A program made the translations under genes and the position numbers. Of a DNA stretch of 34,658 bases, positions 5,962 to 22,692 are shown piece by piece. Position 1 is the stretch's first letter. Every line of letters starts with the position of its first letter. The stretch covers positions 1 through 34,658 of the forward strand of contig JALWHQ010000439.1 in NCBI GenBank assembly GCA_026983525.1, in the 5' to 3' direction. The DNA is from Anaerolineae bacterium (GTDB lineage Bacteria; Chloroflexota; Anaerolineae; JAADDB01). The notes beneath the pieces are model-generated. The model saw only the letters and a program-made list of their open reading frames with translations. It did not search any database and had not been told where the DNA came from.

Positions 5962-5989
5962 CGGCAGTGCCTATTCGATTTTGGGGGGT

Positions 5990-6635: not shown

Positions 6636-6653
6636 TGCGGCCCAAAATTCGCG

Positions 6654-6809: not shown

Positions 6810-6815
6810 GGGGGC

Positions 6816-6905: not shown

Positions 6906-6979
6906 AGGGGATGCGTGGGCACAAGGCTCGGTGCCATGAGGCGGTGAGCCTTTTCATTTGGAATAAGGAGGACGGCGCC

Positions 6980-7357
6980 ATGAAAGGGTACGTGTGGATG
7001 TGGTTCGAAGGAGACGAGGACGACCTGCGCGCGTTGGAGACTATTTTCGGCCCCCAACCCTTTGTGCGTCGCGTCATCAGACCCGACGGCACCGTCGTCA
7101 TTCGCGGAAGGGCACGCCTGTGGTCGGTAGACTGGCTGGAGCGGGTCGAACGTGGGGAAATCCAAACAGACCTTGCGCGTACAGAGGCCATCATCGCGTG
7201 GTTCTACGACGAGGGAGAAGTGGCGCTCATACGTCGCTGTCGTGAATTAGGGTTGGATGTACAACGGGCCCTGGAAATATATCGGACCCTCAAAGGAATG
7301 ACGGTGGAAGAGGCGCGTGCATGGTTGAATTCGGATAGGGAAAAGCCCAATACCTAA
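6980..7357 (+). CDS. Hypothetical protein (125 aa)
   Basis: AAGGAGG RBS 8 nt before ATG 6980. Protein-like composition. The tail (LEIYRTLKGMTVEEARAWL) is loosely similar to ribosomal L7/L12 C-terminal-like helices. Confidence 0.7.
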   Translation: MKGYVWMWFEGDEDDLRALETIFGPQPFVRRVIRPDGTVVIRGRARLWSVDWLERVERGEIQTDLARTEAIIAWFYDEGEVALIRRCRELGLDVQRALEIYRTLKGMTVEEARAWLNSDREKPNT

Positions 7358-7363
7358 GAAAGG

Positions 7364-8095
7364 TTAATCCCCAGATGGGAAGAGGCCTCTTCGCGCTCGT
7401 AGCATCCGGTAGCCCTGTGCTGTGATAGCCCAACGAGGCCCTTCGTCCGTAGCAACCTCCATCACCGCTCCCCCTGCCTTCAGACGTTCCAGAATTTCGC
7501 GCACCCGCTCCAGGGGAAGGTCCGTGTCCACGGCAAGCCCGCTTAGGGAACGCAAGCGGTAGGGGCTGCCCACCAATGCCTCCAACACCCGACGAACATC
7601 TTCATCCAAAAGCTTCGCTTTTTCGGGTTGCACCGCCGCTACGCCTATTGCCCCCTCCACTCTTGGTTCTGGAGGTCCAATTTCAGGCTCTTTCAACATC
7701 TGAATGTAGCGCTCATGGAGCGTTATGTTCTTTTGTAGCGTTTTGATCTCCTGGTCGTGTTTCTGAAGATCTTGCAACAATCGCTGGGAAACAGAGGAGA
7801 TGAAGCGTTCCGCCCCGAGGCTGGCTGCAAGGGCTATGGCGAAGAGAAGGAAAAGGTTCTCCGACAATGACGTGCTTTTGTTGGGAGATAGTATATTATT
7901 CAACACCTCGCTCCGGGTGAAGGAGAGGAAGAGCGGCACCAGAAACGCGGCCGCCAGAGAGGTCAGGAAGAACCGTAGGAATGTTCTACAGGACAAGGGC
8001 TCCTCTGATCGGGAAGCAGTGCGCACCCATCTTACTAATCCACCAAGTAAGGCGGCACTCCCAAGAACCAAAATAACGTAGGCGGCTTGCCACAT
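7364..8095 (-). CDS. YLATT-like (YEATS-associated three-TM) membrane protein with coiled coil and C-terminal winged HTH
   Basis: GGAGGTG RBS before ATG 8095. TM1 ALLGGLV, TM2 AAAFLVPLFL, TM3 ...AASLGAERFISSVSQRLL match my recollection of the YLATT pattern. C-terminal RSLSGLAVDTDLPLERVREILERL...WAITAQG is wHTH-like. Confidence 0.7.
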   Translation of the reverse strand: MWQAAYVILVLGSAALLGGLVRWVRTASRSEEPLSCRTFLRFFLTSLAAAFLVPLFLSFTRSEVLNNILSPNKSTSLSENLFLLFAIALAASLGAERFISSVSQRLLQDLQKHDQEIKTLQKNITLHERYIQMLKEPEIGPPEPRVEGAIGVAAVQPEKAKLLDEDVRRVLEALVGSPYRLRSLSGLAVDTDLPLERVREILERLKAGGAVMEVATDEGPRWAITAQGYRMLRARRGLFPSGD

Positions 8096-8131
8096 GAGGC
8101 ACCTCCCCAATGTAACGTCTATCCGTGACAA

Positions 8132-8166
8132 GGTATAGCAAATCGACGATAACAAAGTTGAAACAA
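8132..8166 (-). promoter_or_regulatory. Shared promoter/operator box, copy A (degenerate)
   Basis: Plus strand ATAGCA-N10-AACAAAGT-tga-AACAA. On the minus strand this is a direct repeat followed by TGcTATACC, upstream of ATG 8095. Confidence 0.6.
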
Positions 8167-8235
8167 CAGGGGGGTGGCGTACTGACAAGTCCACATATGT
8201 TTACGGATAGTTGTGGAGAAAGGCCGGAGGGGAGG

Positions 8236-8274
8236 CTTTTCTGTGTGCCGGGCTTCACCCGGCGCACAGAAAAG
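8236..8274. terminator. 17-bp stem-loop downstream of the 8393-9925 gene
   Basis: cttttctgtgtgccggg-cttca-cccggcgcacagaaaag. Confidence 0.6.
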
Positions 8275-8392
8275 ATCTTCTCCCCCCGCCCCGTATGGCC
8301 ACCTCCCAAGGATAAAGTTTTATTAGTCAATCAGCAAGAGGGGGAATAGGAGCAAATGTCCAATCCCCCGCTCCAAATAGAAAGGGCAAGGA

Positions 8393-9925
8393 TTATCGAG
8401 ACATAAGCGGTAGAAAAGAGGAAAAGAATGTACACGCCTTTCGCCCACTTAGTTCGTATGTAAAGGAGCGAAGTGGCCAAGAGCCCTCAATCGGCCTTGG
8501 TAACTGTATGTAGGTTGGAGAAGCGGTGGCTTGGAAGGAGATAGTCTCCACTTGGGTAGAAGGGATTTCTCCCGCACAATCGCTGTTGCCATTGGCGTCG
8601 ATTTTGACCACATACATATCTTCCTGTTGAGCGCCAAAACTCTTCGTCCACCCCCCGATGAGAAATCCTCCATCTGATGTCTGCACCACGGCTTTCGCGG
8701 TATCATCTTCAGGACCACCATAGGTTCTGCTCCATACCATGTTACCCGTGGCATCAATCTTCACCAGGTACAGATCCCTCCCTCCTCGGCCAAAACTCTC
8801 TGTGTAACCCGCCAAGACGAAACCACCGTCGGATGTAGGGGCTACAGCGTAGGCCTTCTCATCCTTAGGACCGCCATACGTACGGCTCCACACGAGATTG
8901 CCCGAGGCATCAATTTTGAGCGCGTACATGTCCATTCCCCCCACACCATAACTCTCCGTAGATCCAACAAGGAGAACCCCACCATCAAGGGTGAGCGTTG
9001 CCCCCCAAACTTCCTCGTTCTCCACACCACCATACGTGCGCTTCCACCACATGCCCCCTTTAGGGTAAATCTTTATCACGTAGATATCGCTTTTTCCCGC
9101 ACCAAAACTTTCCGTTTCCCCTATCAGCAAAATTCCCCCATCCCCCATTTGCACAGCCCCCCTCCCCACATCGTTAGATCTGCCACCATAGGTGCGACTC
9201 CACAGGGGATTGAAGGAAGCATCCAAATTGACGACATAAACATCGTATGCGCCAACACTCGTAGAGGAGGTCGTCCCTACCAAAAGGTAGCCTCCAACCC
9301 ATAAAGGGATGACCGTTAGAGCTGCATCGATATACGACCCCCTAAGAACATAGTGACGTTGGACCTCACCGTTAGCCCGGATTTTGAGCACAAACACGTC
9401 ATCCAAAGCATAAAGACCAAAAAGCCCACCTGGCATCTTTGTGGCCCCTGTAATGAGAAACCCCCCATCAGCGGTCTGAATCCCCCGCCAGGGAACATCG
9501 TCTCTATCCCCGCTGTAAGCGCGTGTCCATTGAGGATTACCAAAAGCATCGATTTTTATGGCCACAACGTCCAATCCTCGACCATTTCCGGTCGTGGCTG
9601 CCCCTAAGAGTAAAAAGCCCCCATCTGTCGCGGGGATGATTGAACTTATGCCATCCCGACCGCTTCCCCCAAAGACACGCTGAAAACGCGAGGAAGCAGC
9701 AACGAAGGATGGTTGTTGCCTGGTCGCAAATGGAGACAGCGCATCAACAGCAGAGCCCACACAGTCTACTTCATAGGAAGGGGAAAAAGGGGATACCGGG
9801 TAGAATATCCCAACCAAAACAATGGCAAACATTAACAACACCCGCCTGTAGTTTGATCTTCGCCATCGGCCATGCACCAGGCATCCACTACGGGCCAACA
9901 TGTTCCTCCTCCTATCTTTGTCCAA
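8393..9925 (-). CDS. Secreted 7-repeat beta-propeller protein (WxxTYGG...TxDGGF repeats) with C-terminal FLPLMSR tail; start uncertain (9925, 9901 or 9832)
   Basis: Basic region then a hydrophobic signal/TM segment. Seven ~49-aa repeats, a Cys-X47-Cys segment, then the terminal tail. Confidence 0.85.
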   Translation of the reverse strand: MDKDRRRNMLARSGCLVHGRWRRSNYRRVLLMFAIVLVGIFYPVSPFSPSYEVDCVGSAVDALSPFATRQQPSFVAASSRFQRVFGGSGRDGISSIIPATDGGFLLLGAATTGNGRGLDVVAIKIDAFGNPQWTRAYSGDRDDVPWRGIQTADGGFLITGATKMPGGLFGLYALDDVFVLKIRANGEVQRHYVLRGSYIDAALTVIPLWVGGYLLVGTTSSTSVGAYDVYVVNLDASFNPLWSRTYGGRSNDVGRGAVQMGDGGILLIGETESFGAGKSDIYVIKIYPKGGMWWKRTYGGVENEEVWGATLTLDGGVLLVGSTESYGVGGMDMYALKIDASGNLVWSRTYGGPKDEKAYAVAPTSDGGFVLAGYTESFGRGGRDLYLVKIDATGNMVWSRTYGGPEDDTAKAVVQTSDGGFLIGGWTKSFGAQQEDMYVVKIDANGNSDCAGEIPSTQVETISFQATASPTYIQLPRPIEGSWPLRSFTYELSGRKACTFFSSFLPLMSR

Positions 9926-9976
9926 ATTAAAGATGGGGGGAAGGAACAGTGTCCTCCCCCCTATCCTCCTCCTTAC

Positions 9977-12310
9977 TTAGCGTATGACCGCAGGCAGGTA
10001 ATGCTGTCGCGGCAGCGGATACAGCGCAAAACCAACGTCCACCACCGTGTTGGCCGCCACTTCCACCTCCACCGTCAGAGCGCTCACCACATACACCCCA
10101 CCCGGATACGCCACACTCACGGTGTAACGCCCTGGCATCACATCCACAAACCGGAAATAACCCTGAGCATCAGTCACCGTCTCACGAACCTCCGCCAGTC
10201 GACCCCACCCCAATGCCGACTCCAACCGCACTCTCAAACCAACCACCCCCTCTTCACCCGCATCCCGCTCACCATCTCGATCCACATCCGCCCATACATA
10301 CCCCTCCACGACACCCGTCGCAGGTGTCGCCGTCGCCGTCGCCGTCGGCGTAGGCGTCAACGTGGGCGTCGGGGTCGGCGTCGGCGTCGATGTCGCCGTA
10401 GGTGTCGCCGTCGGCGTCGGCGTAGGTCGCCCCAAGACAAACAGGTTGTCCACATAATACCCAGACGCCGGACTAATGTACTCTATCGTCCCTGCATCTA
10501 TCACCCGCCCAGGCAATGGCGCCTCCGCTCGTACCGATACCCACCCCCCAGGCGGCCGCACCTGCAAGCGATAGCGATAATACCCCTTGTCCTCCCACCA
10601 GAAGAGGAAAAACTGCCCATTCCCATGTGTCCTCGCTTGCTTCAACAAATCCCACCCCGCCGTGCGGGTGTTATACCCCAAAAGGTCGACCCTCACGTCC
10701 CCCATCGGCTTGCCTGACATATCCTCCACACGCCCCCAAAACCGGTAGTTGCGCACCGGTGTCGGGGATGGAGTAACCGTTGGCGTCGGGGTAGCCGTGG
10801 GAGGAGACGTTGGGGTCGGCGTCGGCGTAGGAGTGCCAGGAGCAAACGTTGGCGTCGGCGTCGGAGAGGATGTCGGCGTTGAGGTAGGGGACGGTGTAGG
10901 AGTCGGCGGCCCCACGAAGCATTGTTGAACCGGAAAAGCAAAGGTGGTAGAGACAGAGGGACTGATGCTTGACACTGTGGCATTCGTGGTTATACCGTAA
11001 GCCCCCCCTGGTGTCTGAGTAACGGAGATACTTTGCACGATGGCGTTGGAGGTGCCGGCAAACCCACATCCTGGAATATTCCCATTGGCGTCCAACTTCA
11101 ACACCCACAGATCTCCAGACATAGAGCCCGCCACGATATAACCACCATCGGCTGTCTGTTGGATAGCATTCCCTTCATCCCACCCATTATCTCCGTATGT
11201 TTTCTCCCACTGCACATTACCATTGGCGTCTAATTTCATCACCCAAACATCATACCAACCAGCGCCAAAGGAGTTAGTCCACCCGGATACAATGTAGCCC
11301 CCATCCGATGTCTGTTGGATAGCATAAAGCCTGTCCGTACCGTTACCCCCATAGGTTTTTTGCCATTGCACATTGCCATTAGCATCCAACTTTAACACCC
11401 ACGCGTCGCTAAAACCAGCACCAAAGGACAAAGTCTCTCCAGTCACAATGTAACCGCCATCTATCGTCTGTTGGATAGCGTAGCCGCGATCGTCATCACT
11501 TCCCCCATAGGCCTTTTGCCATTGCACATTGCCATTAGTGTCCAACTTCACTACCAACAGGTCATCACGCCCGGCCCCAAAAGACCGAGTGTATCCTGTC
11601 ACGATGTAACCACCGTCTGTCGTCTGTTGGATAGCATAACCATAATCAGGGCTCGTGCCACCAAAAGTTTTCTCCCATTGGACGTTGCCGTTAGCATCCA
11701 CTTTCAACACCCACACATCGTTAACCCCAAAGGAGTAAGTTCTTCCGACTACAACGTAGCCCCCGTCCGAGGTCTGCTGAACAGCAAGGCCATTTTCTCC
11801 CCCTCCGCCTCCATAAGTCTTCTGCCATTGCACATTGCCGTTGGCGTCCAACTTCAACACCCAGACATCATCATTGCCCGCGCCAAAGGAGTAGGTAGCT
11901 CCAACCACAATATAGCCACCATCCGATGTTTGCTGGATGTCTTGAGCCCAGTCGTGACTGCCTCCGCCATAAGCCCTTTGCCATTGCACATTGCCGTTAG
12001 CGTCCAACTTCAACACCCAAAAATCCCGATTACCAGCCCCAAAGGATTTGGTATACCCAGCAACGATATAACCGCCATCCGATGTTTGTCGAATTGCATA
12101 AGCCGTTTCAGTGGAGCCTCCTCCATACGATTTCGCCCATGCGGCACCGGCCATGCCTAAACCCTGTCGACTTATCGCGCCCAAACTGAGGTGCTCCGTT
12201 CCTGCCCGCGCAGCAGGCATCGTCCCCGTCACCAACATCAGCAATAGAAGCAACGCTCCCGGCACGAACTGCCACCGTAAAACACGTCGCTTCCGTACTT
12301 CCCCATTCAT
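9977..12310 (-). CDS. Secreted 7-repeat beta-propeller protein with PT linkers, a carboxypeptidase-regulatory-like domain, an SdrD-B/Cna-B-like domain and a YLPAVIR tail
   Basis: GGAGGTG RBS. Signal peptide ending PAARA. Seven WxKxYGG...QQTxDGGYIVxG...DxWVLKLDxNGN repeats. GVVEGYVWADVDRDGERDAGEEG...TDAQGYFRFVDVMPGRYTV. Confidence 0.9.
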   Translation of the reverse strand: MNGEVRKRRVLRWQFVPGALLLLLMLVTGTMPAARAGTEHLSLGAISRQGLGMAGAAWAKSYGGGSTETAYAIRQTSDGGYIVAGYTKSFGAGNRDFWVLKLDANGNVQWQRAYGGGSHDWAQDIQQTSDGGYIVVGATYSFGAGNDDVWVLKLDANGNVQWQKTYGGGGGENGLAVQQTSDGGYVVVGRTYSFGVNDVWVLKVDANGNVQWEKTFGGTSPDYGYAIQQTTDGGYIVTGYTRSFGAGRDDLLVVKLDTNGNVQWQKAYGGSDDDRGYAIQQTIDGGYIVTGETLSFGAGFSDAWVLKLDANGNVQWQKTYGGNGTDRLYAIQQTSDGGYIVSGWTNSFGAGWYDVWVMKLDANGNVQWEKTYGDNGWDEGNAIQQTADGGYIVAGSMSGDLWVLKLDANGNIPGCGFAGTSNAIVQSISVTQTPGGAYGITTNATVSSISPSVSTTFAFPVQQCFVGPPTPTPSPTSTPTSSPTPTPTFAPGTPTPTPTPTSPPTATPTPTVTPSPTPVRNYRFWGRVEDMSGKPMGDVRVDLLGYNTRTAGWDLLKQARTHGNGQFFLFWWEDKGYYRYRLQVRPPGGWVSVRAEAPLPGRVIDAGTIEYISPASGYYVDNLFVLGRPTPTPTATPTATSTPTPTPTPTLTPTPTATATATPATGVVEGYVWADVDRDGERDAGEEGVVGLRVRLESALGWGRLAEVRETVTDAQGYFRFVDVMPGRYTVSVAYPGGVYVVSALTVEVEVAANTVVDVGFALYPLPRQHYLPAVIR

Positions 12311-12427
12311 GGCTCACCTCCTAACGTGTGTGAAGTGCTGAACAGTATTCACAAAATCACACCGACTTGGCAGCAGACCTTTAATGGCCACAGAGCGCAT
12401 GAAGGGTTCATCTTCCATTGATAAAAA

Positions 12428-12463
12428 GACATAGCAGATCGGTAGGAACAAAGTGTGAACAAA
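12428..12463 (-). promoter_or_regulatory. Shared promoter/operator box, copy B
   Basis: Plus strand ATAGCA-gatcggta-GGAACAAAGTGTGAACAAA. The 19-mer is identical to copy C. Confidence 0.8.
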
Positions 12464-12609
12464 AGGCGGATATTAGGTATTGATTGGGGATTGGAGCCTA
12501 TGGGGAGGATACTTCGGAAGTTCTCGTGGATATGGGATATGGACTCGGATCCACCCCTTGATGATCGTTTGCCGGACTCACCGTTGGGTGACCACAGGGC
12601 GTTCTTTAT

Positions 12610-12645
12610 GTAGGGGGTGGGAGCGCTGCGCTGGCGCTCCCACCC
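12610..12645. repeat. GTAG-headed GC-rich palindrome (REP-like hairpin) after the 12656 stop
   Basis: gtag-g-gggtgggagcgc-tgcgctg-gcgctcccaccc, a perfect 12-bp stem. Confidence 0.55.
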
Positions 12646-12655
12646 GTGGGCTCTG

Positions 12656-14446
12656 CTACTGCATTACCGTGGGTAGGAACTGCCTCCGCGATAGCGGGTA
12701 CAGCGCAAAATCAACGTCCACCACCGTGTTGGCTGCCACATTTGCCTCCACCGTCAAGTCGCTCACCGCGTACACGCCCCCCGGATAGATCAGGCTCACG
12801 GTATAACGGCCGGGAGGCACGTTCGTGAAGCGATAGAAACCCTGGGCATTCGTGACCGCCTCCCTGACCTGAGCCTGGGATGCTTGGGCCGGCACCAACC
12901 GCACCGTCAAGCCGGCCAATCCTCCCTCACCGGCATCCCGTTCACCGTTCCGGTTCACGTCGGCCCACACGTGTCCTTGTACAGTGCCCGTGGTGGGCGT
13001 GGGGGTCGGTGTGGGCGTGGCTGCAATACATCGGACCCTGACAACAGCCGCAGGTGTGGCGACCGTCGCATTCGTGCTCCACACGCGGATGGAGGCCCAA
13101 CCTACTCCCATAGAAAGACGATCTCTTCGAACGTTGCTATTCCGCACTTCCGGAGTACTCCTGGCAAAGAGGTTGCATCCCGGAATGTCCCCCTGAGCAT
13201 TCATCCTGAACACCAGCATGTCTCCCCCGTCCACACCGGCCACAACGTAGTCGCCATTTTCGGTTTGCAGTACACTTTCTCCCCACTCGCCGCCTGGAGT
13301 CCCATATGTTTTCTGCCACTGAACACGGCCCTCCGGGGTCAACTTCAGCATCCAGACATCAATATTACCGGCACCGAAGGACCAGGTTTCTCCTACCAGA
13401 AGGTATCCCCCATCCCGTGTTTGCAGGACGTCGTAGAAAACATCGTATTCCCCTCCCCCAAACGTCTTCTCCCACTCTATGTCGCCGTTGGGTCTCAGTT
13501 TGACCACCCACGCATCGAAATAGGCACCGGCCGTCTTTGTTTCTCCGGCCAGGATAAACCCACCGTCGGTGGTCTGTTGTACGGCGTAGGCTTTGGCATC
13601 CCTACCTCGACTATACACCTGACTCCACTGGACGCGACCGTTGGCGTCCAATTTCATCGCCCAGAAATCGAACGTAGATTTCAGGGACGAACCAGCCAGA
13701 ATGTAACCACCGTCATCCGTTCCCTGAAAGTCGTTAACCGATATCGCTCTCCCTGCTTCTCCATAAGTTCTCTGCCATCGGAGAATCCCATTCCTGTCCA
13801 ATTTGAACAGCCAGGCATTGCCGTAATACTTACCAGCGATCAAGTAGCTACCATCACTCATCTCTTGGACAGCAGCGGCTTTATCGCCGCCCGCGTGCCC
13901 AAGGGTCGTTTGCCACTCGATGTTGCCGTTGGGTCCCAGTTTGACCACCCACGCATCTGACGCGCCGACACTGAATGACCAGGTAGAACCAGCCAGGATA
14001 TAGCCACCGTCCGTCGTCTGCTGAATAGAATGGACCTCTTCATCCGACGGGCCTCCATACGTCTTTTGCCACTCAATCTCTCCTTCGGGGTCCAGTTTGA
14101 TGACCCAGATGTCTTGATTTCTGGTTTCGCGGTACCACATGTGGCCGGCCAAAATGTACCCCCCGTCCGCGGTCTGTTGGATGGTATGAGCTTGTCCATA
14201 TTGCCCCTTCGTGCTGCTCTCATAACTCTTTGCCCATAGGGAACTTCCTGTGGCGCGGTTCATCACACAGGGCGTGTTGAAACTATCGCTCCCGGCAATG
14301 TATGAGATACTCGCCGTAACCTTACTTCCGCCCTCTGCTTGGGCCTGGGGGATAAACCCTGCTAACAAAATCCACACCAACAGAACCGTTCCCAAAACTA
14401 ACCGCCAACGCATCAAACCCAGGTTGTGGTCTCTCACTTCCATCAT
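12656..14446 (-). CDS. Secreted 7-repeat beta-propeller protein with PT linker, SdrD-B-like domain and FLPTVMQ tail
   Basis: AAGGAGGTG RBS. Signal peptide ending PQAQA. Seven repeats, GDIPGC...RC, then GTVQGHVWADVNRNGERDAGEGG. Confidence 0.9.
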   Translation of the reverse strand: MMEVRDHNLGLMRWRLVLGTVLLVWILLAGFIPQAQAEGGSKVTASISYIAGSDSFNTPCVMNRATGSSLWAKSYESSTKGQYGQAHTIQQTADGGYILAGHMWYRETRNQDIWVIKLDPEGEIEWQKTYGGPSDEEVHSIQQTTDGGYILAGSTWSFSVGASDAWVVKLGPNGNIEWQTTLGHAGGDKAAAVQEMSDGSYLIAGKYYGNAWLFKLDRNGILRWQRTYGEAGRAISVNDFQGTDDGGYILAGSSLKSTFDFWAMKLDANGRVQWSQVYSRGRDAKAYAVQQTTDGGFILAGETKTAGAYFDAWVVKLRPNGDIEWEKTFGGGEYDVFYDVLQTRDGGYLLVGETWSFGAGNIDVWMLKLTPEGRVQWQKTYGTPGGEWGESVLQTENGDYVVAGVDGGDMLVFRMNAQGDIPGCNLFARSTPEVRNSNVRRDRLSMGVGWASIRVWSTNATVATPAAVVRVRCIAATPTPTPTPTTGTVQGHVWADVNRNGERDAGEGGLAGLTVRLVPAQASQAQVREAVTNAQGFYRFTNVPPGRYTVSLIYPGGVYAVSDLTVEANVAANTVVDVDFALYPLSRRQFLPTVMQ

Positions 14447-14526
14447 CCACCTCCTTCATGATCTTCTCGCTCCCCGCCTGAGCAGGCAATGGGACACATT
14501 GGGAAACGGCCGGAACAACGAGCAAA

Positions 14527-14568
14527 CCTTGGGGTGACGGGAACGTCCTCTTGCCCGCCACCCCAAGG
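14527..14568 (-). terminator. Stem-loop just after the RCC1-repeat gene
   Basis: Minus strand ccttggggtggcggg-N12-cccgtcaccccaagg followed by tttg. Confidence 0.5.
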
Positions 14569-14575
14569 AGAACGT

Positions 14576-17233
14576 TCACCACAGCATGATAGGCAGCCAG
14601 TGGTGTTTCAGCGGCCGCGGAGAAACGTTGGGAATGGAAAGACGGAAGCCATCCCCCTCGCGCGGCCGCAAGGGGGCGCGGTTGTCCACACGCAACACAG
14701 TCTGAGCGCGGTATGTGCCCGCCCGCACTTCGATCAGGTACTCGCCCGGGGAGAAGGGCACGGACAGGAAGAGCACCATTTCGCCCGAAGGCTTGAAGCG
14801 GAGGCCATTCCTTACTACTCGGCCGTTGACCAGCAACTGGGCTGCCGCGTTGGGCGGGAAGTTCCAGGCCCACAGGGTGAACCAGCTACCGGGACGACCG
14901 GTGCGATAGTTGAGCCGTACTTCGGGAATGGTCTGGTTCAACACGGGCACGGGCTTGCGCTGGAGCGCGCCCCGCGCCCGTCCCAATTGCCCATAACCAT
15001 CCCATCCCCAGCAGAGCACGGGCGCGGTAGTGGCAGTGGTCACTAACGCACACGTGTAATCCTGCCCGGCCGTTACCGCCGTCACCCCCGCAGTAAGGTC
15101 TGGAACGGGCACCGGCCGCGGGCTGTTGCCCCAATCACCGTTACCCAATTGCCCCAAACCATTGGCTCCCCAACACCGGAGTGCACCATTCCCCAACAAA
15201 GCGCAGGTGTGCCGCGCGCCCGCGGCCACAGCCGTGACACTGCCGAGTCCTACCACGTTGACAGGCGCCCGTCGGGAAATAGTTGTTCCATCGCCCAACT
15301 GGCCGTAGGCATTATCGCCCCAACAGCGCACCTTGCCGTTGGTCAGCACCGCGCAGGTGTGAACAGTTCCCGCAGTAATGGATTTTGCTCGGCCGCCCAA
15401 GTTCACGACCTGCACCGGCCTATTGCGGGACGTTTGAGTATTATCGCCCAGTTGCCCGCGCGAGTTATCTCCCCAGCAACGCACAGAACCGTCCTGGAGC
15501 AGCGCGCAAGTGTGATCGTTCCCTGCAGCAAGGGCCACGGCTTTCCCACCCAGGTTGACCACCCGCACAGGGGTGGAACTGTTCTGCGTGGTGCCGTTGC
15601 CCAGTTGTCCCGTCCAGTTAATTCCCCAGCAGCGCACCGAGCCATCGCGCAGGAGTGCGCAGGTGTGAGCATTGCCCGCGACCACCGCGGTAGCCTGTCC
15701 CCCCAGGTTCCTGACCCGCACGGGCGTGTGTCGCTCTTGGGTGGTGCCATCCCCTAATTGGCCGGCAAAATTGCTGCCCCAGCAGAACACCGCGCCATCT
15801 TCCCGCACCGCGCATGTGTGCCCCCATCCTGCGGTCACCGCGATGGCCCGGCCGCCGAGGTTCACCACGCGTGCGGCCCGAAATCGAGCCCGCGTGGTTC
15901 CATCACCCAGTTGGCCGGATGTGTTGCTCCCCCAACAGCGCAGGGATCCATCCTCCAGGAGGGCGCAAGCGTGGAACCCGCCGGCAGCCACGGCCACAGC
16001 CTGTCGCGGCAATCCGAGGACGTGGCGGGGCATACTACTGGCCGCCGGAGAACTGTTCCCGAGTTGACCAAACGTATTGCTTCCCCAACAGCGCGCGGTG
16101 CGGTCTTCCAACACGGCACAGGCGTGGTCGCCGCCGGCAGCGATCTGCCGCACGCGGTCGCGCAACCCCAGGACGCTGACCGGTCGGTTCCTATCGGTCG
16201 TGGACGCGTTGCCCAGTTGGCCGCTGCCGTTCCGCCCCCAACACCGCACGCGGCCTGCTTCCAGAAGAGCACAGGTGAAGGAACCGCCTACGGCGAGGGC
16301 TTTGGCCTTGCCGCCCAGGTGAACGACGGACACCGGGGTCAGCCGCGTGGACCACGTTCCATCCCCCAGTTGACCGGCAAAATTGCTGCCCCAGCAGCGC
16401 ACGCTGCCGTTCTTCAACAATGCGCAGGTGTGGAAACTGCCAGCGCCAATGGCCACGGCCTGTCCGCCCAAGTTGGCGACCGGTCGCGGGGTCGTTTGTT
16501 GGGCCAACGAGCCAATTCCCAGTTGCCCGAATCGGTTGTTCCCCCAGCAGCGTGCGGAACCGTTCTGTAAGAGAGCACACGTGTGGATGTAGCCTGCAGT
16601 AATCGCAACGGCTCGCCCACCCAGGTTGGCGACGCGCACAGGTCGAGAGCGATTGCGCGTGGTACCGTCCCCCAACTGGCCGTACCAGTTATTCCCCCAA
16701 CAACGAACCGAGCCATCTTGGAGCAGGGCACATGTGTGGGTGGCCCCCGCGGCCAGGGCGATGGCTTTCCCGCCCAGGTTGATCACCCGCACAGGCCGGG
16801 GGCTGTCACGCGTGGTGCCATCCCCCAACTGGCCGTCCCCGTTCGCGCCCCAACAGCGCACTGCCCCACCTTGCAGGAGGGCGCACGCGTGGGATCCTCC
16901 GGCAACCACGGCAACGGCCACACCCCCCAAGTTGATAACGGGAGTGGGAACATGGCTGTCAATAGTCGTACCGTTGCCCAACTGCCCTTTCGTATTCTTC
17001 CCCCAGCAGTACACCCTTCCTCCTTGCACCAGGGCGCAGGTGAAATCAATACCTCCCGCGATATGCTGGATGTTGGGCAAAGGGGAAGTCGCGGTCAAAG
17101 CCGTTCGTTGGGTAATAGGCCGGGGTGTACCAATCAACACGTCAGCCTTTACTGGAAGCGGCGCGAGAACGAACAAACTGTTCACGAGAAGGAAGATATG
17201 GAGCCACGTCAGTACGGATTTTGTTCTGAGCAT
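14576..17233 (-). CDS. Secreted RCC1-repeat (RCC1/BLIP-II-like) protein with 14 repeats, a C-terminal beta-sandwich-like domain and a WLPIMLW tail
   Basis: GGAGG RBS before ATG 17233. Signal peptide ending PVKA. I count 14 AGxxHTCAL..GxVRCWGxNxxGQLGxG repeats. Confidence 0.92.
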   Translation of the reverse strand: MLRTKSVLTWLHIFLLVNSLFVLAPLPVKADVLIGTPRPITQRTALTATSPLPNIQHIAGGIDFTCALVQGGRVYCWGKNTKGQLGNGTTIDSHVPTPVINLGGVAVAVVAGGSHACALLQGGAVRCWGANGDGQLGDGTTRDSPRPVRVINLGGKAIALAAGATHTCALLQDGSVRCWGNNWYGQLGDGTTRNRSRPVRVANLGGRAVAITAGYIHTCALLQNGSARCWGNNRFGQLGIGSLAQQTTPRPVANLGGQAVAIGAGSFHTCALLKNGSVRCWGSNFAGQLGDGTWSTRLTPVSVVHLGGKAKALAVGGSFTCALLEAGRVRCWGRNGSGQLGNASTTDRNRPVSVLGLRDRVRQIAAGGDHACAVLEDRTARCWGSNTFGQLGNSSPAASSMPRHVLGLPRQAVAVAAGGFHACALLEDGSLRCWGSNTSGQLGDGTTRARFRAARVVNLGGRAIAVTAGWGHTCAVREDGAVFCWGSNFAGQLGDGTTQERHTPVRVRNLGGQATAVVAGNAHTCALLRDGSVRCWGINWTGQLGNGTTQNSSTPVRVVNLGGKAVALAAGNDHTCALLQDGSVRCWGDNSRGQLGDNTQTSRNRPVQVVNLGGRAKSITAGTVHTCAVLTNGKVRCWGDNAYGQLGDGTTISRRAPVNVVGLGSVTAVAAGARHTCALLGNGALRCWGANGLGQLGNGDWGNSPRPVPVPDLTAGVTAVTAGQDYTCALVTTATTAPVLCWGWDGYGQLGRARGALQRKPVPVLNQTIPEVRLNYRTGRPGSWFTLWAWNFPPNAAAQLLVNGRVVRNGLRFKPSGEMVLFLSVPFSPGEYLIEVRAGTYRAQTVLRVDNRAPLRPREGDGFRLSIPNVSPRPLKHHWLPIMLW

Positions 17234-17289
17234 AGCGTTAGCCTCCGGGTTGGGTATTAGAGATTGGGAAATTAGGGAATCGGATACAG

Positions 17290-17331
17290 GGGCCGAAAAA
17301 CCGACGTCGGGCATCTCCGATTTTTCGGCCC
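17290..17331. repeat. Intergenic palindrome beside degenerate heptamer repeats (17250-17285)
   Basis: gggccgaaaaa ... tttttcggccc (11-bp stem) enclosing the palindrome ccgacgtcgg. Confidence 0.6.
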
Positions 17332-17340
17332 TGGGACACT

Positions 17341-18198
17341 TCAACGCACGGCTGCAGGCATGTACTGGCTATAGGGCAGCGGATATATGGGAAATGGCAC
17401 CTCCGTTCGCCGCCCAGCCACCACCTCAATCTCCTGGCTTAACACCCGCACCGGGTATACCCCGCCCGGGTAGACCAGGTTGACGGTGTAGCGGCCGGGT
17501 GAGACATCGGTGAAGCGGAAGAAGCCCTGGGCGTCGGTGACCGTCTGCCGAGTCTGGCCCAGGCGTCCTTGCGCCTGGGCTGGCACCAGTCGCACCGTGA
17601 GGCCCGCCAGCCCTTTTTCATCGAGGTCGCGCTCGGCGTCTCGGTCCGTGTCTGCCCACACGTAACCCTGCACCGTGCCTGTGGTGGGCGTGGGGGTGGG
17701 AGGCGGAGCGCCTACGAAGCACTGCTCCCTGGGGGAAACGTTGGTGGTGATAACCGTGGCGGCGCTGTCTTCCATTGTGGCACTGGTGCTCGCAACCGAG
17801 GCGTTCGTCGTTGCTCCGGTAACGGTGGTGCCTCGCACGGTGACGTCTGGCGCGCGGACAAGCCCACATCCTGGAATGTCGCCGTTGGCGTCTAACTTCA
17901 ACACCCACATATCCTCCCAGCCAGCGCCGAAGGATTCGGTCTTCCCAACCACAATGTAGCCCCCATCTGTCGTCTGTTGAACGTCATAGGCTATATCAAG
18001 GGCGGATCCCCCATACCTCTTCACCCATGCAATACTCGCCGCGCTCAACTCTATGGCCCTTCTTCCCTCACTCGGTATCACAGAAAGCCCCGCTCGCACG
18101 GGCAGGGAGGACCCTACCACCAAAACCAGCCCCAGAACGGTTACGCTCAACGCCAGGAGCGGTCTCTTCAGGTGTTGATGCCACACAACCTCTCTCAT
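17341..18198 (-). CDS. Secreted paralogue with only one propeller repeat, the Cys-X48-Cys segment, an SdrD-B-like domain and a YMPAAVR tail
   Basis: Signal peptide ending PVRA. A single WVKRYGG...WVLKLDANG unit is joined directly to DIPGC. ATGA overlap with the upstream gene. Confidence 0.85.
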   Translation of the reverse strand: MREVVWHQHLKRPLLALSVTVLGLVLVVGSSLPVRAGLSVIPSEGRRAIELSAASIAWVKRYGGSALDIAYDVQQTTDGGYIVVGKTESFGAGWEDMWVLKLDANGDIPGCGLVRAPDVTVRGTTVTGATTNASVASTSATMEDSAATVITTNVSPREQCFVGAPPPTPTPTTGTVQGYVWADTDRDAERDLDEKGLAGLTVRLVPAQAQGRLGQTRQTVTDAQGFFRFTDVSPGRYTVNLVYPGGVYPVRVLSQEIEVVAGRRTEVPFPIYPLPYSQYMPAAVR

Positions 18199-18710
18199 GG
18201 CATCCCCCTTTCACTTTCCACATCTACACGGAACGACTTGTTTTTGTTTTTGTCAAGCCTTTGGGCAGTACCCCGGCTTACCGTAGAAGGTGGGAAAAAG
18301 CGACGTTTGTCCTGCTCATATGGTTCGCCGGTGGCAATAAAGTGCTCGATGAAGGCAAAGGTGTGGTCGGGCACGTGGGCTTGCAGCCACATGCGGTACG
18401 CGGCCGTAAAAAAGAGGGCCCACAACAAAAACAAGCCCATCGTGCCGGCCAACGCTCTGTCCACCCATCGGCCAAAGCGAATGTCCACGGCCAACGTATC
18501 CTCTGTGGTGGAGAGGGTGACGTTCAGCGTGGATGAGATGCCCAAAACGGACCGCCACACTTCAGCCTGCCGCACTCGAATTACCCTCCGGTTCTCTGCA
18601 GGCTCCACCACGCGGGGGGCGTATCCTCCTGCTTGATACCAGGCGACAAGCGCATGGACGAGTCGGGGCACGTCCACCCCGGCAGATTTGTAAGTGCGAC
18701 GATGCGTCAT
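18195..18710 (-). CDS. Hypothetical membrane-associated protein (171 aa)
   Basis: ATGA overlaps at both ends (18707-18710 and 18195-18198). WRSVLGISSTLNV...GRWVDRA...LFLLWAL resembles a family I recall as often carrying a zinc ribbon, which is absent here. Confidence 0.75.
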   Translation of the reverse strand: MTHRRTYKSAGVDVPRLVHALVAWYQAGGYAPRVVEPAENRRVIRVRQAEVWRSVLGISSTLNVTLSTTEDTLAVDIRFGRWVDRALAGTMGLFLLWALFFTAAYRMWLQAHVPDHTFAFIEHFIATGEPYEQDKRRFFPPSTVSRGTAQRLDKNKNKSFRVDVESERGMP

Positions 18711-19021
18711 GCGTCCGCTCCCGTATCCTGAGTCCCGGGTGGCAGGGATTGATGGTTGGCTTGCTGGTACAAGAAGGCGCTTTGCAGCGCGTGCAGGACG
18801 GTCAGTTCGACCAGAAGTTGGGTGACCAACGCGTGTTGGTCCTCGCTCAGTTGCCTCTCGACCTGATACATGATATCGGCCACGCGCCTGGCCTGCGCCC
18901 GAATATCCTCCAGGCGAACGTCCCCCTCTTTCAGCGCGTGTTCCCACATTTCGATGCGTTCGAGGTAGGACTGAAAAACGTGCTCGTCGCCCTCGTCGCT
19001 GAACCAGCTAGCGAATGTCAT
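18707..19021 (-). CDS. Hypothetical acidic helical protein (104 aa), first gene of the operon
   Basis: GAAGGA RBS. Directly downstream of promoter box C. Stop overlaps the next start. Confidence 0.75.
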   Translation of the reverse strand: MTFASWFSDEGDEHVFQSYLERIEMWEHALKEGDVRLEDIRAQARRVADIMYQVERQLSEDQHALVTQLLVELTVLHALQSAFLYQQANHQSLPPGTQDTGADA

Positions 19022-19053
19022 GTTCCTTCTCGCCCACGATGACGTTCAGGGCG

Positions 19054-19089
19054 AATATAGCAAGGAGGTGGGAACAAAGTGTGAACAAA
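19054..19089 (-). promoter_or_regulatory. Shared promoter/operator box, copy C
   Basis: Minus strand TTTGTTC-acac-TTTGTTC-ccacctcct-TGcTATATT. The heptamers sit at about -42..-36 and -31..-25. Confidence 0.8.
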
Positions 19090-19098
19090 GGGGAATGA

Positions 19099-19243
19099 GG
19101 TATTGGGTATTGGGTATTGGGTATCGGGTATCGGGTATCGGAGATTGGAGATTGAGGGTTGGAGGATAGTCCTGGCGGAGAGGGGAATTACTCCTCGATT
19201 CGATCACGCACGACGCAAGACGTACGACGCACAACGCACGACG
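19099..19243. repeat. Heptamer tandem repeats (GGGTATY)n, (GGAGATT)n and (CGCACGA)n
   Basis: ggtattgggtattgggtattgggtatcgggtatcgggtatcgggagattggagattg; cacgcacgacgcaagacgtacgacgcacaacgcacgacg. Confidence 0.9.
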
Positions 19244-19244
19244 T

Positions 19245-22200
19245 TCAAATCATCTCCCCCCGGCGCAGGCGTTCGGCCAGCCATTCGGTGAGCGCGGAGG
19301 GGCCCACGTCCAACTCCCGTGCCAGCGCAGCGCGCGCCTCCTCGTACACGGCCAGGGCTTGCGCACGTTCCCCCAGGCGGGCAAGGGCCCGCATCTTGAC
19401 CTGATAGGCGGCCTCCACCCAGGGTGCCACAGCCAGCACGCGGTCGGCCCACAAAATGGCCTGGCGGAACTCGCCCCCTTCCAGGTATCGCCGCGCCACG
19501 AAGAGACACCCCTCCTGGTATAGGCGTTGCCAGCGTTCGTCACGCTCTACCCACCAGGTCTCATAGGGGGCAACACTAACGGGCGGGGCCCATGCTTCCA
19601 GGGCTTGCACACACGCCTCAAGGGGTGGCGGCGCGTCCGGGCGGTCTTCCTCCTCCAAGGCGTTCTGAACGGTCCGCTCGAACACTTCCACGTCCACCCA
19701 CACCCGATCTTCCGGGTCAAAGGTGAACACGTCCCAAGTGGTAGAGAGATAGCGAATCGGCCCCTTAGCGCGCATGTAGGGTTCCAGCACCTGCCGCAGC
19801 CAACTGAGCAGGCGGCGGAGGGTCTGCGCGGCTTGTTGGGGATTCTGGTCCGGCCAGAGGTCCGCGAGGATGCGATCGCGGGTCAGGGGCTGGCCGCGAT
19901 GGAGCACGAAGTACTGGAAGAGCCGCACGACAGCCGGCCGGGGCCAGGCGCTGTCCGGGATCTCCGTGTCCCCACGCCAGACGCGAAACGCGCCCATGAA
20001 CTGGACTCTGAGCGGGGGCGGGGGCAGGGCTTCCAGTCGTTTGAGGGCCTGTTCCATGGCCGCGCGCACGTGCGCGTTCTTTTCCCGCTTCAGGCCGCGT
20101 TGTAACGCGGGCATGGCCTCCTCCCGTTGGGTAGCCTGTAACGCCCACGCGGCCCGCCGTCGCACCGCGGCATCCGGCGCCAGAAGGAGATCCTCCAGGC
20201 CCGCCACGCGGCCGATGCGTCCCAGCGCCTCGATGACCATCTCTTCCTCGTAACCCAGAAGCAAGGCCACACGCCAAACCTGGAACCCCAACTCCGGGTC
20301 GCGGTCCGTCAGCACGGGGCGCAAACGGGGGAAGCGGCGTAAGACGTGAAGGAGCGCGCGCAGGTGGCGTCGTGCCTCCGGACGCCCTTCCCGATGGCAG
20401 CGCCACGCGAGCAGACCGCGCAGGCGGATGAGGCTCGGCAGCGCGCGCGCCTGGATGAGGAAGCGCGTGTCCGGGTGCAGGGGCGGTGGAAGCGGGTAGG
20501 CTTCGGTGGCCGCAATGTCGCGCTCCAGCGCGACCAGGGCGCGTGGGAAAGGCGCGTCCCAGGGTTGGTTCAGGGCCTCCTCAGCAATGCGCACGGCCTC
20601 CTCGGGGCGTCCCTGGCGCCGGGCCAGCCAGGCCCGCAATTGCGCCAGGCAAAGGTGACGGTCATTGCGTCCGGCAACGTGCGCTTCTGCCTGGGCGAGC
20701 GCCTTCTCGGCGTTGTCCCACTCGCCTATTCCGATGTGGTACAGCGCCCAGTAATAGAAGCGCCAGAAATTGCTGGTCGTATCGACCGTTTCCACTTCTT
20801 TCACAAGCCCTTCGAGTTCTGTCAGCACTTTTCTGATCCGTTCCCATGCCCCCGTTTCCGCGTACAAGGCCACCCACTGCTCCAGGTAAATCATGCGGGG
20901 CGATGGCCTCTCCTGGTAGTATGACCTATCCTGCTCCAGCAGCGCTTCAGCTTCCTCTAAGTACCCCATAGGCGCGAGGACGTTGGCGGCGAGGTTACCC
21001 CGTTGGTAGAGAGCGATGGTTTCGTGCCCCATCTTTTCGGCGATGGGGATAGCCGCGCGGTAGAAGTATCGCGCTCTGGGAAAGTTTCCGAGCAAAGCGT
21101 AAACGTTGCTGAGAAGAACGGCTGCACGAAACCGGTATTTGAGATCCGTGGCCCCATCCCATAAACGGTGGCCGTATTCCAGGGCTTTTTTGTACCGGCC
21201 TGTCAGAAAGCAGACCTGGCCAAGCGCGTGATAAGCCTGGCAGGTGGCTTCTGGGTCTCCACGGGCCTCCAGAAGCCGTGCTCCCTCGATGACCAATTGC
21301 CATCCTTCTTCCTGCGCTCCCGATGAGCAGAGTTCCGCGGCCAACCGCGTCAGTAGAATCGGATGTCTCTCCCGGTAGGGTTTTGGCAGGCCGAGGATCC
21401 AGCGGCGGTAGGTATAGACGCGATTGGCATCCCAGATGACTTCCATAGGCATGTCGAGGAGCAGCCGCGTGGCCTCGTCCCACAGTTCGTCGGTGAGAGC
21501 CTGTTCGATGGCCAGGTCGTAGTCGTTGCGCCGGTGGAACCAGGTGACGATGTGGCGGGCGATGGTTTTTCGATCGGATGTCTGCGCGCGGAGAAAGGCG
21601 CGAAACAGTTCATGGTAACGCCAATATCCCTCCCGGGTGCCTGGGTCCACAAAGAGACGCCGTCTCGCCACTTCTTGCCAGATGTGTCGCGCTTTTTCCT
21701 CCGCGTCGGGCATGCCCATAGCCTGCCACAGGTGTATAGCCATGTCCGGGGAAAACTGAAGGGCCACGCCCGTCAATTGCAAAAAAGCGCGCACATCCTG
21801 GGGCAACGTTTCCCACAGGCGTTGAAAGATGTGGGTGTGCAGGTACGCCTCCAGGGACGTTTCGATGTGCTCGGGAGCCGTGTACAGGTGGGCGATGTGA
21901 ACCAGGGCGGCGATGGCGAGGGGCCAGCCGCCTGTGCGCGCGTGCCAGGCCCGACTCTGCTCTGCCGTGTAGCCGATAGGGCGGAGCCAGCGGGCCACTT
22001 CCTCGGGCGTCAAAGCCAGATCGCGCTCGGTGAGGTAGGTGGTAGGGAGGGCGTGCAGGGCGTGGGCCAGTGGCGTGGGCAACCAGCGACCGCTGAGGAC
22101 CCACCGCTCGGGCGCGGCGCGAATGTGCTGGACGAGCCAGTCCAGGGCCTGGTCCGCGCCTTCCAGAACGTGAACGTCGTCCAGCAGAATGGGCGACGAG

Positions 22201-22451
22201 GAAGCGAGATGCGGTTGCAAGCGCGCTTCCAGGTAGCCCACATCCTGGTCGGCGAGGGTGAGGGGGACGACCACGCTGCCCGGGATCTGGGCGGCCAGCG
22301 CGTGCAGGAGGGTGGTCTTACCGTAGCCGGCCGCGGCAATGACGGCCAGCGGGCCACGCGCGAGGTGATGGAGTGCACGACGTACAAGGTGCAGACGCTC
22401 GAAGTAACCGAATTGCTGAACAACTGGCCCATCCGCGGTGTCACTTTGCAT
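19245..22451 (-). CDS. Large transcriptional activator: MalT-like STAND NTPase, TPR array, HEAT-like repeat, and SARP-type wHTH/BTAD domain (start approximate)
   Basis: Walker A AAAGYGKTT and Walker B ILLDDVH. TGGWPLAI and WRYHELFRAFL are MalT-like. LRVQFMGAFRV...LTRDRILADLWPD...LRQVLEP...WVDVEVFE and PWVEAAYQVKMR...ELDVGPS are SARP/BTAD-like. Confidence 0.9.
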   Translation of the reverse strand: MQSDTADGPVVQQFGYFERLHLVRRALHHLARGPLAVIAAAGYGKTTLLHALAAQIPGSVVVPLTLADQDVGYLEARLQPHLASSSPILLDDVHVLEGADQALDWLVQHIRAAPERWVLSGRWLPTPLAHALHALPTTYLTERDLALTPEEVARWLRPIGYTAEQSRAWHARTGGWPLAIAALVHIAHLYTAPEHIETSLEAYLHTHIFQRLWETLPQDVRAFLQLTGVALQFSPDMAIHLWQAMGMPDAEEKARHIWQEVARRRLFVDPGTREGYWRYHELFRAFLRAQTSDRKTIARHIVTWFHRRNDYDLAIEQALTDELWDEATRLLLDMPMEVIWDANRVYTYRRWILGLPKPYRERHPILLTRLAAELCSSGAQEEGWQLVIEGARLLEARGDPEATCQAYHALGQVCFLTGRYKKALEYGHRLWDGATDLKYRFRAAVLLSNVYALLGNFPRARYFYRAAIPIAEKMGHETIALYQRGNLAANVLAPMGYLEEAEALLEQDRSYYQERPSPRMIYLEQWVALYAETGAWERIRKVLTELEGLVKEVETVDTTSNFWRFYYWALYHIGIGEWDNAEKALAQAEAHVAGRNDRHLCLAQLRAWLARRQGRPEEAVRIAEEALNQPWDAPFPRALVALERDIAATEAYPLPPPLHPDTRFLIQARALPSLIRLRGLLAWRCHREGRPEARRHLRALLHVLRRFPRLRPVLTDRDPELGFQVWRVALLLGYEEEMVIEALGRIGRVAGLEDLLLAPDAAVRRRAAWALQATQREEAMPALQRGLKREKNAHVRAAMEQALKRLEALPPPPLRVQFMGAFRVWRGDTEIPDSAWPRPAVVRLFQYFVLHRGQPLTRDRILADLWPDQNPQQAAQTLRRLLSWLRQVLEPYMRAKGPIRYLSTTWDVFTFDPEDRVWVDVEVFERTVQNALEEEDRPDAPPPLEACVQALEAWAPPVSVAPYETWWVERDERWQRLYQEGCLFVARRYLEGGEFRQAILWADRVLAVAPWVEAAYQVKMRALARLGERAQALAVYEEARAALARELDVGPSALTEWLAERLRRGEMI

Positions 22452-22616: not shown

Positions 22617-22692
22617 TGGTGAGGCGCGGAGGACTCGAACCCCCAACCCGCGGATTAAGAGTCCGCTGCTCTACCAGTTGAGCTAGCGCCCC
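22617..22692 (-). tRNA. tRNA-Lys (anticodon CTT), CCA encoded
   Basis: GGGGCGCTAGCTCAACTGGTAGAGCAGCGGACTCTTAATCCGCGGGTTGGGGGTTCGAGTCCTCCGCGCCTCACCA, 76 nt, folds to a full cloverleaf. Confidence 0.97.

Follow-up and report, generated by a model that had tools for sequence, protein, structure and literature searches.

A MalT-like STAND regulator with a C-terminal SARP module and its predicted three-promoter regulon of exported proteins in an Anaerolineae bacterium

What does a STAND-type transcriptional regulator control when its gene heads a row of genes for exported proteins? The question is raised by contig JALWHQ010000439.1 of an Anaerolineae bacterium (phylum Chloroflexota; assembly GCA_026983525.1), a stretch of 34,658 nucleotides (nt) which was analysed in full and which we call the window; it is the entire contig, C439 in our numbering. 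Positions 22451-7364 hold a locus of nine genes, all on the minus strand, and the nine co-oriented genes counted by a first-pass annotation of this DNA are thereby confirmed. They encode a regulator, two small proteins (small1 and small2), five secreted proteins (G3, an RCC1-repeat protein, G5, G6 and G7) and a membrane protein of the YLATT family. We consider it rather likely, from the sequence, that the regulator is a STAND-SARP activator linked through a shared promoter box to a private regulon of three promoters, which serve exported scaffolds and small membrane proteins. The elements at the centre of this reading are as follows (aa, amino acids).

19245..22451, minus strand: regulator, 1068 aa; MalT-like STAND NTPase, TPR, HEAT, then OmpR-type winged helix plus BTAD (C-terminal SARP module)
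19054..19089, minus strand: box 1; two 11-bp-spaced direct repeats plus extended -10 (TGCTATATT), 156 nt past the regulator stop; 37.8 bits, the genome's best site
12428..12463, minus strand: box 2; 19-mer identical to that of box 1; 36.6 bits
8132..8166, minus strand: box 3; weaker copy with equal phase and distance to TGCTATACC; 22.8 bits, the genome's third best site

The architecture proposed for the regulator in the first pass, a STAND NTPase with TPR, winged helix-turn-helix (wHTH) and BTAD parts, is borne out by matches in Pfam, NCBIfam and the Protein Data Bank (PDB). Trans_reg_C (885-950; E = 2.4e-7) is followed by BTAD (963-1107; E = 2.4e-17), both over the Pfam cut-offs, which is the wHTH and BTAD combination of SARP-type proteins. 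The C-terminal 250 aa (residues 813-1063) align to 8hvr_I of the PDB (E = 3.9e-7), an AfsR chain solved within a transcription complex, and a stretch of the NCBIfam AfsR model also matches (E = 4.8e-13). Walker A and Walker B motifs could be read off the translation, and NCBIfam MalT matches locally over residues 132-339 (125-336 of 903 model positions; E = 2.9e-10), with a score of 38.8 bits that falls far short of the equivalog cut-off of 537 bits. Together with matches to TPR_12 and HEAT_2, these features place the protein among the STAND NTPases of the MalT clade; no NB-ARC match was found in the Pfam scan. The start at 22451 is likely the correct one because a longer open reading frame (ORF), which extends to 22583, would take in the terminator-like hairpin behind a tRNA-Lys gene.

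The promoter box is an 11-bp direct repeat, TTGTTCACAC-T-TTGTTCCCAC, which lies upstream of small1, G6 and the YLATT gene. Its repeats sit at the -35 position, one helical turn apart, and an extended -10 element, TGCTATA (TGnTATA at the sites), begins 7-8 nt past them; a consensus scan returned no canonical -35/-10 promoter for the three box-bearing units. The first-pass annotation had seen the same promoter box on three units and had likened it to the SARP-type direct repeats near -35. Both observations hold, since the repeats overlap the -35 position and the pattern TTGTT-N6-TTGTT-N8-14-TGCTAT has three sites in the 3.28-Mb assembly, every one of them in the locus, on the minus strand and upstream of a unit. 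About 0.0015 occurrences are expected, as estimated from base composition. Boxes 1 and 2 share an identical 19-mer which occurs twice in the assembly and in none of 100 shuffles. A 22-nt matrix was derived from 10 sites, the three locus boxes among them; when the genome is scanned with it, these boxes rank first to third (37.8, 36.6 and 22.8 bits) and the next site scores 19.8 bits.

We evaluated the link between regulator and box in a survey of 401 genomes of the class, in which the genome of this locus is G000. The first-pass annotation had made its proposal depend on regulator homologues occurring together with such genes, and the neighbourhood check shows that they do. Full-length regulator orthologues (35-66% identity, E<=1e-60) are present in 24 of the 401 genomes, and the strict box, TTGTTCACNNNTTGTTC, has 25 sites in 13 of them; identical or near-identical boxes number three each in G001, G002, G351 and G370 and two each in G021, G192 and G248. 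Composition predicts about 3.3 such sites, and a reversed-pattern control gave, by our own count, 6 single sites across the same genomes. An orthologue is found in 10 of the 13 box-bearing genomes against 24 of 401 overall (Fisher p = 2e-11, a value that is overstated because the relatives are not independent), and the three box genomes that lack one have single sites with atypical spacers. When 10 of the 14 orthologue genomes without a strict box were searched again with a pattern one base shorter, sites appeared in 6 of them, with 0 control sites.

The position of the box points in the same direction. Seven genomes from three families (G000, G001, G192, G107, G389, G224 and L074) have a box, or a near-variant of it, immediately 3' of the regulator gene. 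L074 holds a public regulator orthologue, 60% identical and the same protein as that of G133 in the class search; a variant box follows its regulator gene, and neither small1 nor small2 was recognised downstream of that box. In G002 the two are unlinked, the regulator being on contig C44 and the boxes on C15 and C84. These boxes still precede proteins with signal-like N-termini, of which three, an RCC1 protein among them, have tail-like ends, and we count the arrangement as a putative case of action in trans.

The genes that would respond to the box here are listed below, with G5, which lacks a box of its own.

18707..19021, minus strand: small1, 104 aa with a conserved part of ~89 aa; no family
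18195..18710, minus strand: small2, 171 aa with a core of 131 aa; alpha/beta domain, then two hydrophobic helices
17341..18198, minus strand: G3, 285 aa, secreted; one delta-60-type blade, SdrD_B domain, tail
14576..17344, minus strand: RCC1-repeat protein; 14 repeats plus tail, probable start ATG 17233; Pfam RCC1 7.4e-139
12656..14446, minus strand: G5, 596 aa; seven-blade delta-60 propeller, SdrD_B, tail; no box of its own
9977..12310, minus strand: G6, 777 aa; seven-blade delta-60 propeller, Pro/Thr linkers, two Ig-like domains, tail
8393..9925, minus strand: G7, 510 aa, probable ATG 9901; delta-60/SBBP propeller, tail; NCBIfam SBBP plus delta-60
7364..8095, minus strand: YLATT protein, 243 aa; three-helix membrane domain, long helix, C-terminal winged helix; PF20303 E 2.4e-16

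The N-termini of the secreted proteins, read off their translations, are basic, then hydrophobic, and end in AxA. Delta-60-type blade cores, counted by regular expression, number 7 in G5, 7 in G6 and 6 in G7. Because G3 carries only one blade, four of the five proteins are true multi-blade propellers, and the first-pass description of five propeller proteins stands for these four alone. G3, G5, G6 and G7 are paralogous, with 28-59% identity (38% between G7 and G6), and G3, G5 and G6 end in an Ig-like domain of the SdrD_B/CarboxypepD_reg type. The counterpart of G3 in the same genus (L017 345-2639) is an open frame of 764 aa, measured stop to stop, which suggests either that repeats were lost by a deletion between them in this genome or that a different paralogue occupies the position. 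The propeller and Ig-like scaffolds are probably binding or structural surface proteins.

Downstream of the box in relatives there are likewise large proteins whose N-termini are hydrophobic and signal-like, and the majority of these proteins have the same type of tail. The cargo of G002 comprises a 1465-aa beta-helix/C25 protein and an operon for a 1339-aa BNR/sortilin protein and an 866-aa RCC1 protein (lengths of stop-to-stop frames). G192 and G133 have BNR or beta-helix proteins behind the box, and in G021 a beta-helix protein comes first after it. The boxes of genus g18 precede small1-small2, a zinc-ribbon protein, a WD40 protein and a multi-pass membrane protein, and the variant box after the G224 regulator precedes a 292-aa protein of no family, with a conserved hydrophobic stretch at its end, and two PrsW-family proteases. 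The propellers, taken in the first pass for the common output of the regulon, are accordingly not a conserved cargo; beta-helix and BNR proteins, PrsW proteases or the small pair replace them elsewhere. Across these comparisons the regulator, the operator and the exported-or-membrane type of cargo are conserved and the particular cargo is not.

The two small genes recur with the regulator. That they are coupled, as the first pass had it, is confirmed by 4-nt start/stop overlaps, which join small1 to small2 (the start of small2 overlaps the stop of small1) and small2 to G3. Neither Pfam nor NCBIfam has a match for small1. Its orthologues stand before small2 in G001 and in four genomes of genus g18, and small1 always precedes small2 among the occurrences examined. 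Close relatives of small2 are found in G001 and G021; at E<=1e-15 the protein is present in 27 of the 401 genomes and in 13 of the 24 with a regulator orthologue, and in genus g18 it lies 8-10 kb from the orthologue wherever both are on one contig. The coupled small pair is the conserved companion of the regulator.

A word-based search returned only 4 homologous proteins for small2. A profile built from five sequences found 726 representatives (E<=1e-3) in 1.84 billion proteins. In 23 of these relatives, picked largely for exceeding the domain in length, we found an N-terminal TIR_2 domain in 9, CHAT in 1, Pkinase in 2, FHA in 1, a zinc ribbon in 7 and SHOCT in 4. Pfam has no family for the small2 domain, a widely distributed module found in addition as the C-terminal part of TIR-, CHAT- and kinase-containing proteins (P0013, P0020, P0030, P0034, P0064 and others). 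Its structural model, with a predicted local distance difference test (pLDDT) score of 85.3, shows a beta-alpha-beta-beta-alpha-beta-beta domain followed by two hydrophobic helices. A Foldseek search of the PDB with this model gave no match at E<=0.001, and no fold family was assigned because the best matches, to BamC-N, KA1 and START/TBP-like domains, reach only E ~5e-3. Prediction of a small1-small2 complex lends weak support to direct contact, with a score of 0.47 against 0.13 for the best control; 65% or more of the contacts are the same between runs, with a partner pLDDT of 77 or more. The mark applied to this score was reached by 58 of 80 solved complexes and by 2 of 110 mismatched pairs.

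The membership of the YLATT gene is of a different kind. The first-pass annotation had included a YLATT-like membrane protein as a part of the system. The family assignment stands (59.9 bits against a Pfam cut-off of 26.7) and the gene has a box of its own, but the family occurs in only 1 of the 401 genomes, G000 itself, and was not found in five orthologue-bearing relatives. A word-based search gave 3 homologous proteins, and one that is 88% identical is held in a public record. A shallow AlphaFold model (mean pLDDT 59.7) shows three long N-terminal helices at low confidence; the C-terminal helix-helix-helix-strand-strand part, which has winged-helix topology, reaches block means of 72-87. 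None of the relevant papers searched mentions YLATT, searches for YEATS-like with STAND or conflict terms gave nothing on the family, and the text of PMC8195603 contains none of YEATS, 3TM and BTAD. The protein is best described as a putative accessory, a member of the unit set in this genome only. Box 3 is nevertheless far beyond chance, and the gene looks like a recently recruited target.

All five secreted proteins of the locus end in [aromatic]-[LM]-P-x-x-x-[RQW]. The codons of this tail differ between the genes, so its conservation is at the protein level; a nucleotide-level element was considered and dropped for the same reason. Among the ORFs of 100 aa or more in the genome, 21 have the pattern [aromatic/aliphatic]-[LIVM]-P-x-[hydrophobic]-x-[RKQW] at their very end, where its frequency at internal positions predicts 2.1. 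Five of the 21 are in the locus and 16 elsewhere, including two short ones that look like chance. We scanned 16 tail or tail-like proteins of other contigs, 14 from this list and 2 from a looser one. Fourteen of them contain CBM9, Peptidase_C25, DUF11, SpoIID, cadherin-like, cohesin/dockerin, beta-helix, SBBP or PPC domains, and two contain none of these. No fewer than 14 further proteins that are credible as large and extracellular, and unrelated in domain content, end in the tail, which is therefore a general extracellular-protein tag of the lineage rather than a signature of the regulon. The first-pass annotation was thus right that all five secreted proteins share the tail, which is, however, a genome-wide tag and not specific to the locus.

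The same tail ends box-driven proteins in G001, G002, G133 and G192. Within G000, ORFs with the tail lie on contigs C82, C171, C174, C191, C255, C268, C337, C373, C384, C393 (two), C415, C424 and C473, and looser forms on C294, C498 and C41. In the box-driven beta-helix protein of G021 (L015 3373-7263) the motif occurs ~50 residues before the predicted end and a low-complexity extension comes after it; the alternatives are a tag that can be internal and a mis-read gene end. The genome has one sortase gene and one exosortase-family gene. No NCBIfam tag model matched the tail at E<=0.01, and a literature search on tail and sorting-signal terms gave no description of it. In this Chloroflexota lineage the helix-less tail may act as an undescribed tag for sorting or anchoring.

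The assembly comprises 3.28 Mb in 503 contigs, with 60% G+C and 92.6% completeness. Housekeeping genes border the locus, a Cys/Met PLP enzyme at 4458-5699 and CoaBC at 22904-24130, and no biosynthetic genes are among those identified in the flanks. Also at its border is tRNA-Lys(CTT) (22617-22692), which has a perfect sigma-70 promoter-like site of its own and the terminator-like hairpin after it. The G+C content is 0.52-0.57 across 8001-14000 of the window, where the genes of G5-G7 lie, against 0.60 genome-wide. No recognisable gene was seen at 5700-7360; a plus-strand ORF of 148 aa at 6911-7357, which converges on the YLATT gene, was without a match in Pfam, NCBIfam and PADLOC. Further away, a HEPN-domain gene (31695-32144) shares a 4-nt overlap with a 388-aa ORF of no family (together 30532-32144), and the two may form a toxin-antitoxin-like pair. 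Many intergenic regions of the window contain tandem heptanucleotide repeats of 2-8 copies, with a unit that differs from place to place (2070-2219, 2843-2911, 4394-4451, 19099-19154, 19206-19243, 24145-24204, 32841-32902 and 34581-34642). They resemble the short tandem heptamer repeats of some cyanobacteria. Those upstream of boxes 1 and 2 were considered as a part of the operator and dropped, because such repeats occupy many intergenic regions of the window and are not specific to the box promoters.

These data allow us to propose how the locus would work. The regulator would be a cytoplasmic 1068-aa MalT-like STAND ATPase whose TPR/HEAT part senses a ligand. In the ATP-bound, assembled state its C-terminal SARP module would bind as two side-by-side copies to the two repeats of the box, which would stand in for the -35 element and end ~7-8 nt upstream of the extended -10, and the bound regulator would recruit RNA polymerase, like AfsR at afsS. 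Unit 1 (small1-small2-G3-RCC1, perhaps reading through into G5), unit 2 (G6-G7) and unit 3 (the YLATT gene) would then be switched on, yielding Sec-exported, tag-bearing extracellular proteins and small membrane proteins. We infer regulator-box binding, ligand-dependent oligomerisation, co-expression, a surface location of the products and a role in remodelling of the surface or envelope. Such remodelling is the plain reading of purpose; an immune-like one draws on the fusion partners of small2 and on the name of the YLATT family.

In that second reading, which we regard as unlikely, the locus is a conflict module in which the STAND protein acts as a transcriptional NLR: on invasion, small2 and YLATT would serve as effectors that damage or rewire the membrane, and an altered surface coat would block adsorption. 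Of the 23 small2 relatives noted above, which were picked largely for length, 9 are fused to TIR_2, 1 to CHAT and 2 to Pkinase, and the cargo found in the most distant pair of groups (f1 genus g1 and genus g18) is small1-small2. By its name the YLATT family is linked to a YEATS-like partner, and families linked to YEATS-like domains belong to conflict systems. The Ardenticatenaceae, a relative of our organism within the class, are presumably filamentous. Excerpts of PMC7159879 describe such conflict systems as enriched in multicellular bacteria, and abstracts present STAND NTPases as common immune sensors. The contents of the locus argue the other way. It has no enzymatic effector domain, small2 stands here alone without TIR or CHAT, and the coding capacity goes mostly to large secreted scaffolds. 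YLATT is confined to 1 of 401 genomes, the flanks are housekeeping genes, and a PADLOC scan of 12 proteins gave no convincing match, only two marginal ones to the regulator (E = 0.0013 and 0.0038).

We judge it quite improbable that the box is bound by another factor, be it a paralogous STAND-SARP protein, another OmpR-type regulator or an alternative sigma factor, with the adjacent regulator controlling something else. Candidates for such a factor exist: G000 itself has 7 matches to the C-terminal module of the regulator. The architecture is not rare, for its paralogues are abundant in the class. Of 41 related genomes, 33 contain matches to the regulator, as many as 16 in a single genome, and the majority of these matches are open frames of 1000-1300 aa in which the C-terminal module is the part recognised. 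The strict box is missing from 14 of the 24 orthologue genomes, and in G002 regulator and boxes are on separate contigs. Against this stand the co-occurrence of box and orthologue (10 of 13 against 24 of 401) and, in seven genomes that represent three families, a box that immediately follows the regulator gene. The 11-bp spacing and the distances from the repeats to the -10 fit neither sigma-70 nor ECF -35/-10 spacing, and no similar repeats were seen 3' of the genes of four paralogous regulators in G000.

That there is no regulon, the box being a promoter copied along with duplicated surface-protein genes, is very improbable: G3, G5, G6 and G7 are indeed paralogous (28-59% identity) and boxes 1 and 2 share their 19-mer, but the sequences around the boxes are unrelated to one another, the small genes behind box 1 are not paralogous to them and the YLATT gene behind box 3 is unrelated, and in other genera and families the box is retained before beta-helix and BNR proteins and the small pair while its surroundings diverge.

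Together, the domains, the uniqueness and conservation of the box, its co-occurrence with the regulator and the promoter geometry support a predicted STAND-SARP activator with a three-promoter regulon. Several points weigh against it. Box 3 is weak (22.8 bits) and the YLATT gene that it precedes was not found in the relatives searched, G5 (12656-14446) is without a box of its own, and none lies upstream of the regulator gene itself. Fourteen of the 24 orthologue genomes lack the strict box, and 4 of the 10 that were searched again had no site by the shorter pattern either. G000 encodes 7 matches to the regulator type, and a paralogue or another factor could bind the box. Finally, the cargo differs between genomes, for which reason no single function can be read from it.

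A wider view, to which we give little credence as a whole, is that Chloroflexota hold a large radiation of inverted-SARP STAND regulators with private operators. The one described here would be a transcriptional, NLR-like sensor of an intracellular danger or developmental cue that induces the membrane pair small1/small2, of a TIR/CHAT-associated family, and a changeable coat of extracellular binding proteins, whose export would use an undescribed helix-less tag at the C-terminus, [FYW]-[LIV]-P-x-hydrophobic-x-[RK].

The STAND-SARP reading places a SARP-type DNA-binding module and its operator geometry in Chloroflexota, behind a MalT-like sensor and in predicted control of exported proteins. 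In excerpts of the review PMC10972967, SARP activation is treated as an actinobacterial device for antibiotic clusters. Because the operator is so specific, with 3 sites per genome, the regulon can be read from the sequence alone, and this makes the model open to direct testing in a phylum for which genetic tools are few. The finding of up to 16 regulator matches per genome suggests a major, unexplored regulatory layer. By-products of the analysis are a tail tag common to at least 19 credible extracellular proteins and a family of small membrane domains fused elsewhere to TIR, CHAT and kinase domains.

Compared with known systems, the locus shares features with several. Like the NTP-dependent conflict systems of PMC7159879 it has a STAND-type NTPase with TPR and HEAT repeats, and the small2 family is fused elsewhere to TIR and CHAT; unlike them, it has its transcriptional output on the NTPase and no effector enzyme. 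The text of that paper has 0 occurrences of BTAD and of SARP, and among the 12 proteins compared with PADLOC-DB 2.0 the two marginal regulator matches are the only ones, so that no system listed there is recognised. The tail resembles the LPXTG/sortase, PEP-CTERM/exosortase and MYXO-CTERM signals in being a short C-terminal signature on many unrelated extracellular proteins of one genome. Known tags of this kind are, in the excerpts of PMC11980579 and 10.1101/2023.06.07.544157, tripartite, with a motif, a transmembrane helix and a basic cluster. In contrast to such tags (LPXTG, PEP-CTERM, GlyGly-CTERM and MYXO-CTERM), the proteins described here end 4 residues after the Pro, with neither hydrophobic helix nor basic cluster, and the locus tails are therefore not tripartite sorting domains.

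With MalT and the LAL-type regulators the protein has in common an N-terminal STAND ATPase, a helical-repeat sensor and a C-terminal DNA-binding output; it differs in that this output is an OmpR-type wHTH with BTAD and not a LuxR-type HTH. A literature search on SARP, Chloroflexi and BTAD gave, among the papers listed, none on such regulators outside actinobacteria, nor on the inverted form. The excerpts of PMC10972967 place SARP domains only at the N-terminus, describe SARPs as exclusive to actinobacteria and give them control of secondary-metabolite clusters; the protein described here has a C-terminal module, a Chloroflexota host and no such targets.

The closest likeness is to AfsR and the large SARPs of Streptomyces, with which it shares an OmpR-type winged helix and BTAD, a P-loop STAND-type NTPase and TPR. 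Its domains come in the inverse order, the SARP module being C-terminal; the NTPase matches MalT and not NB-ARC, a HEAT region is added, the phylum is Chloroflexota, and the predicted targets are secreted and membrane proteins rather than biosynthetic clusters. A small ORF is the first target in both, and afsS presumably lies directly 3' of afsR, as small1 does of the regulator here. According to excerpts of PMC11301090, AfsR activates afsS and binds direct repeats that overlap the -35 and lie 8 nt upstream of the -10, where two DNA-binding domains occupy the same face of the DNA. The sites predicted here would have the same operator geometry: direct repeats one turn apart, overlapping the -35 and ~8 nt from the -10.

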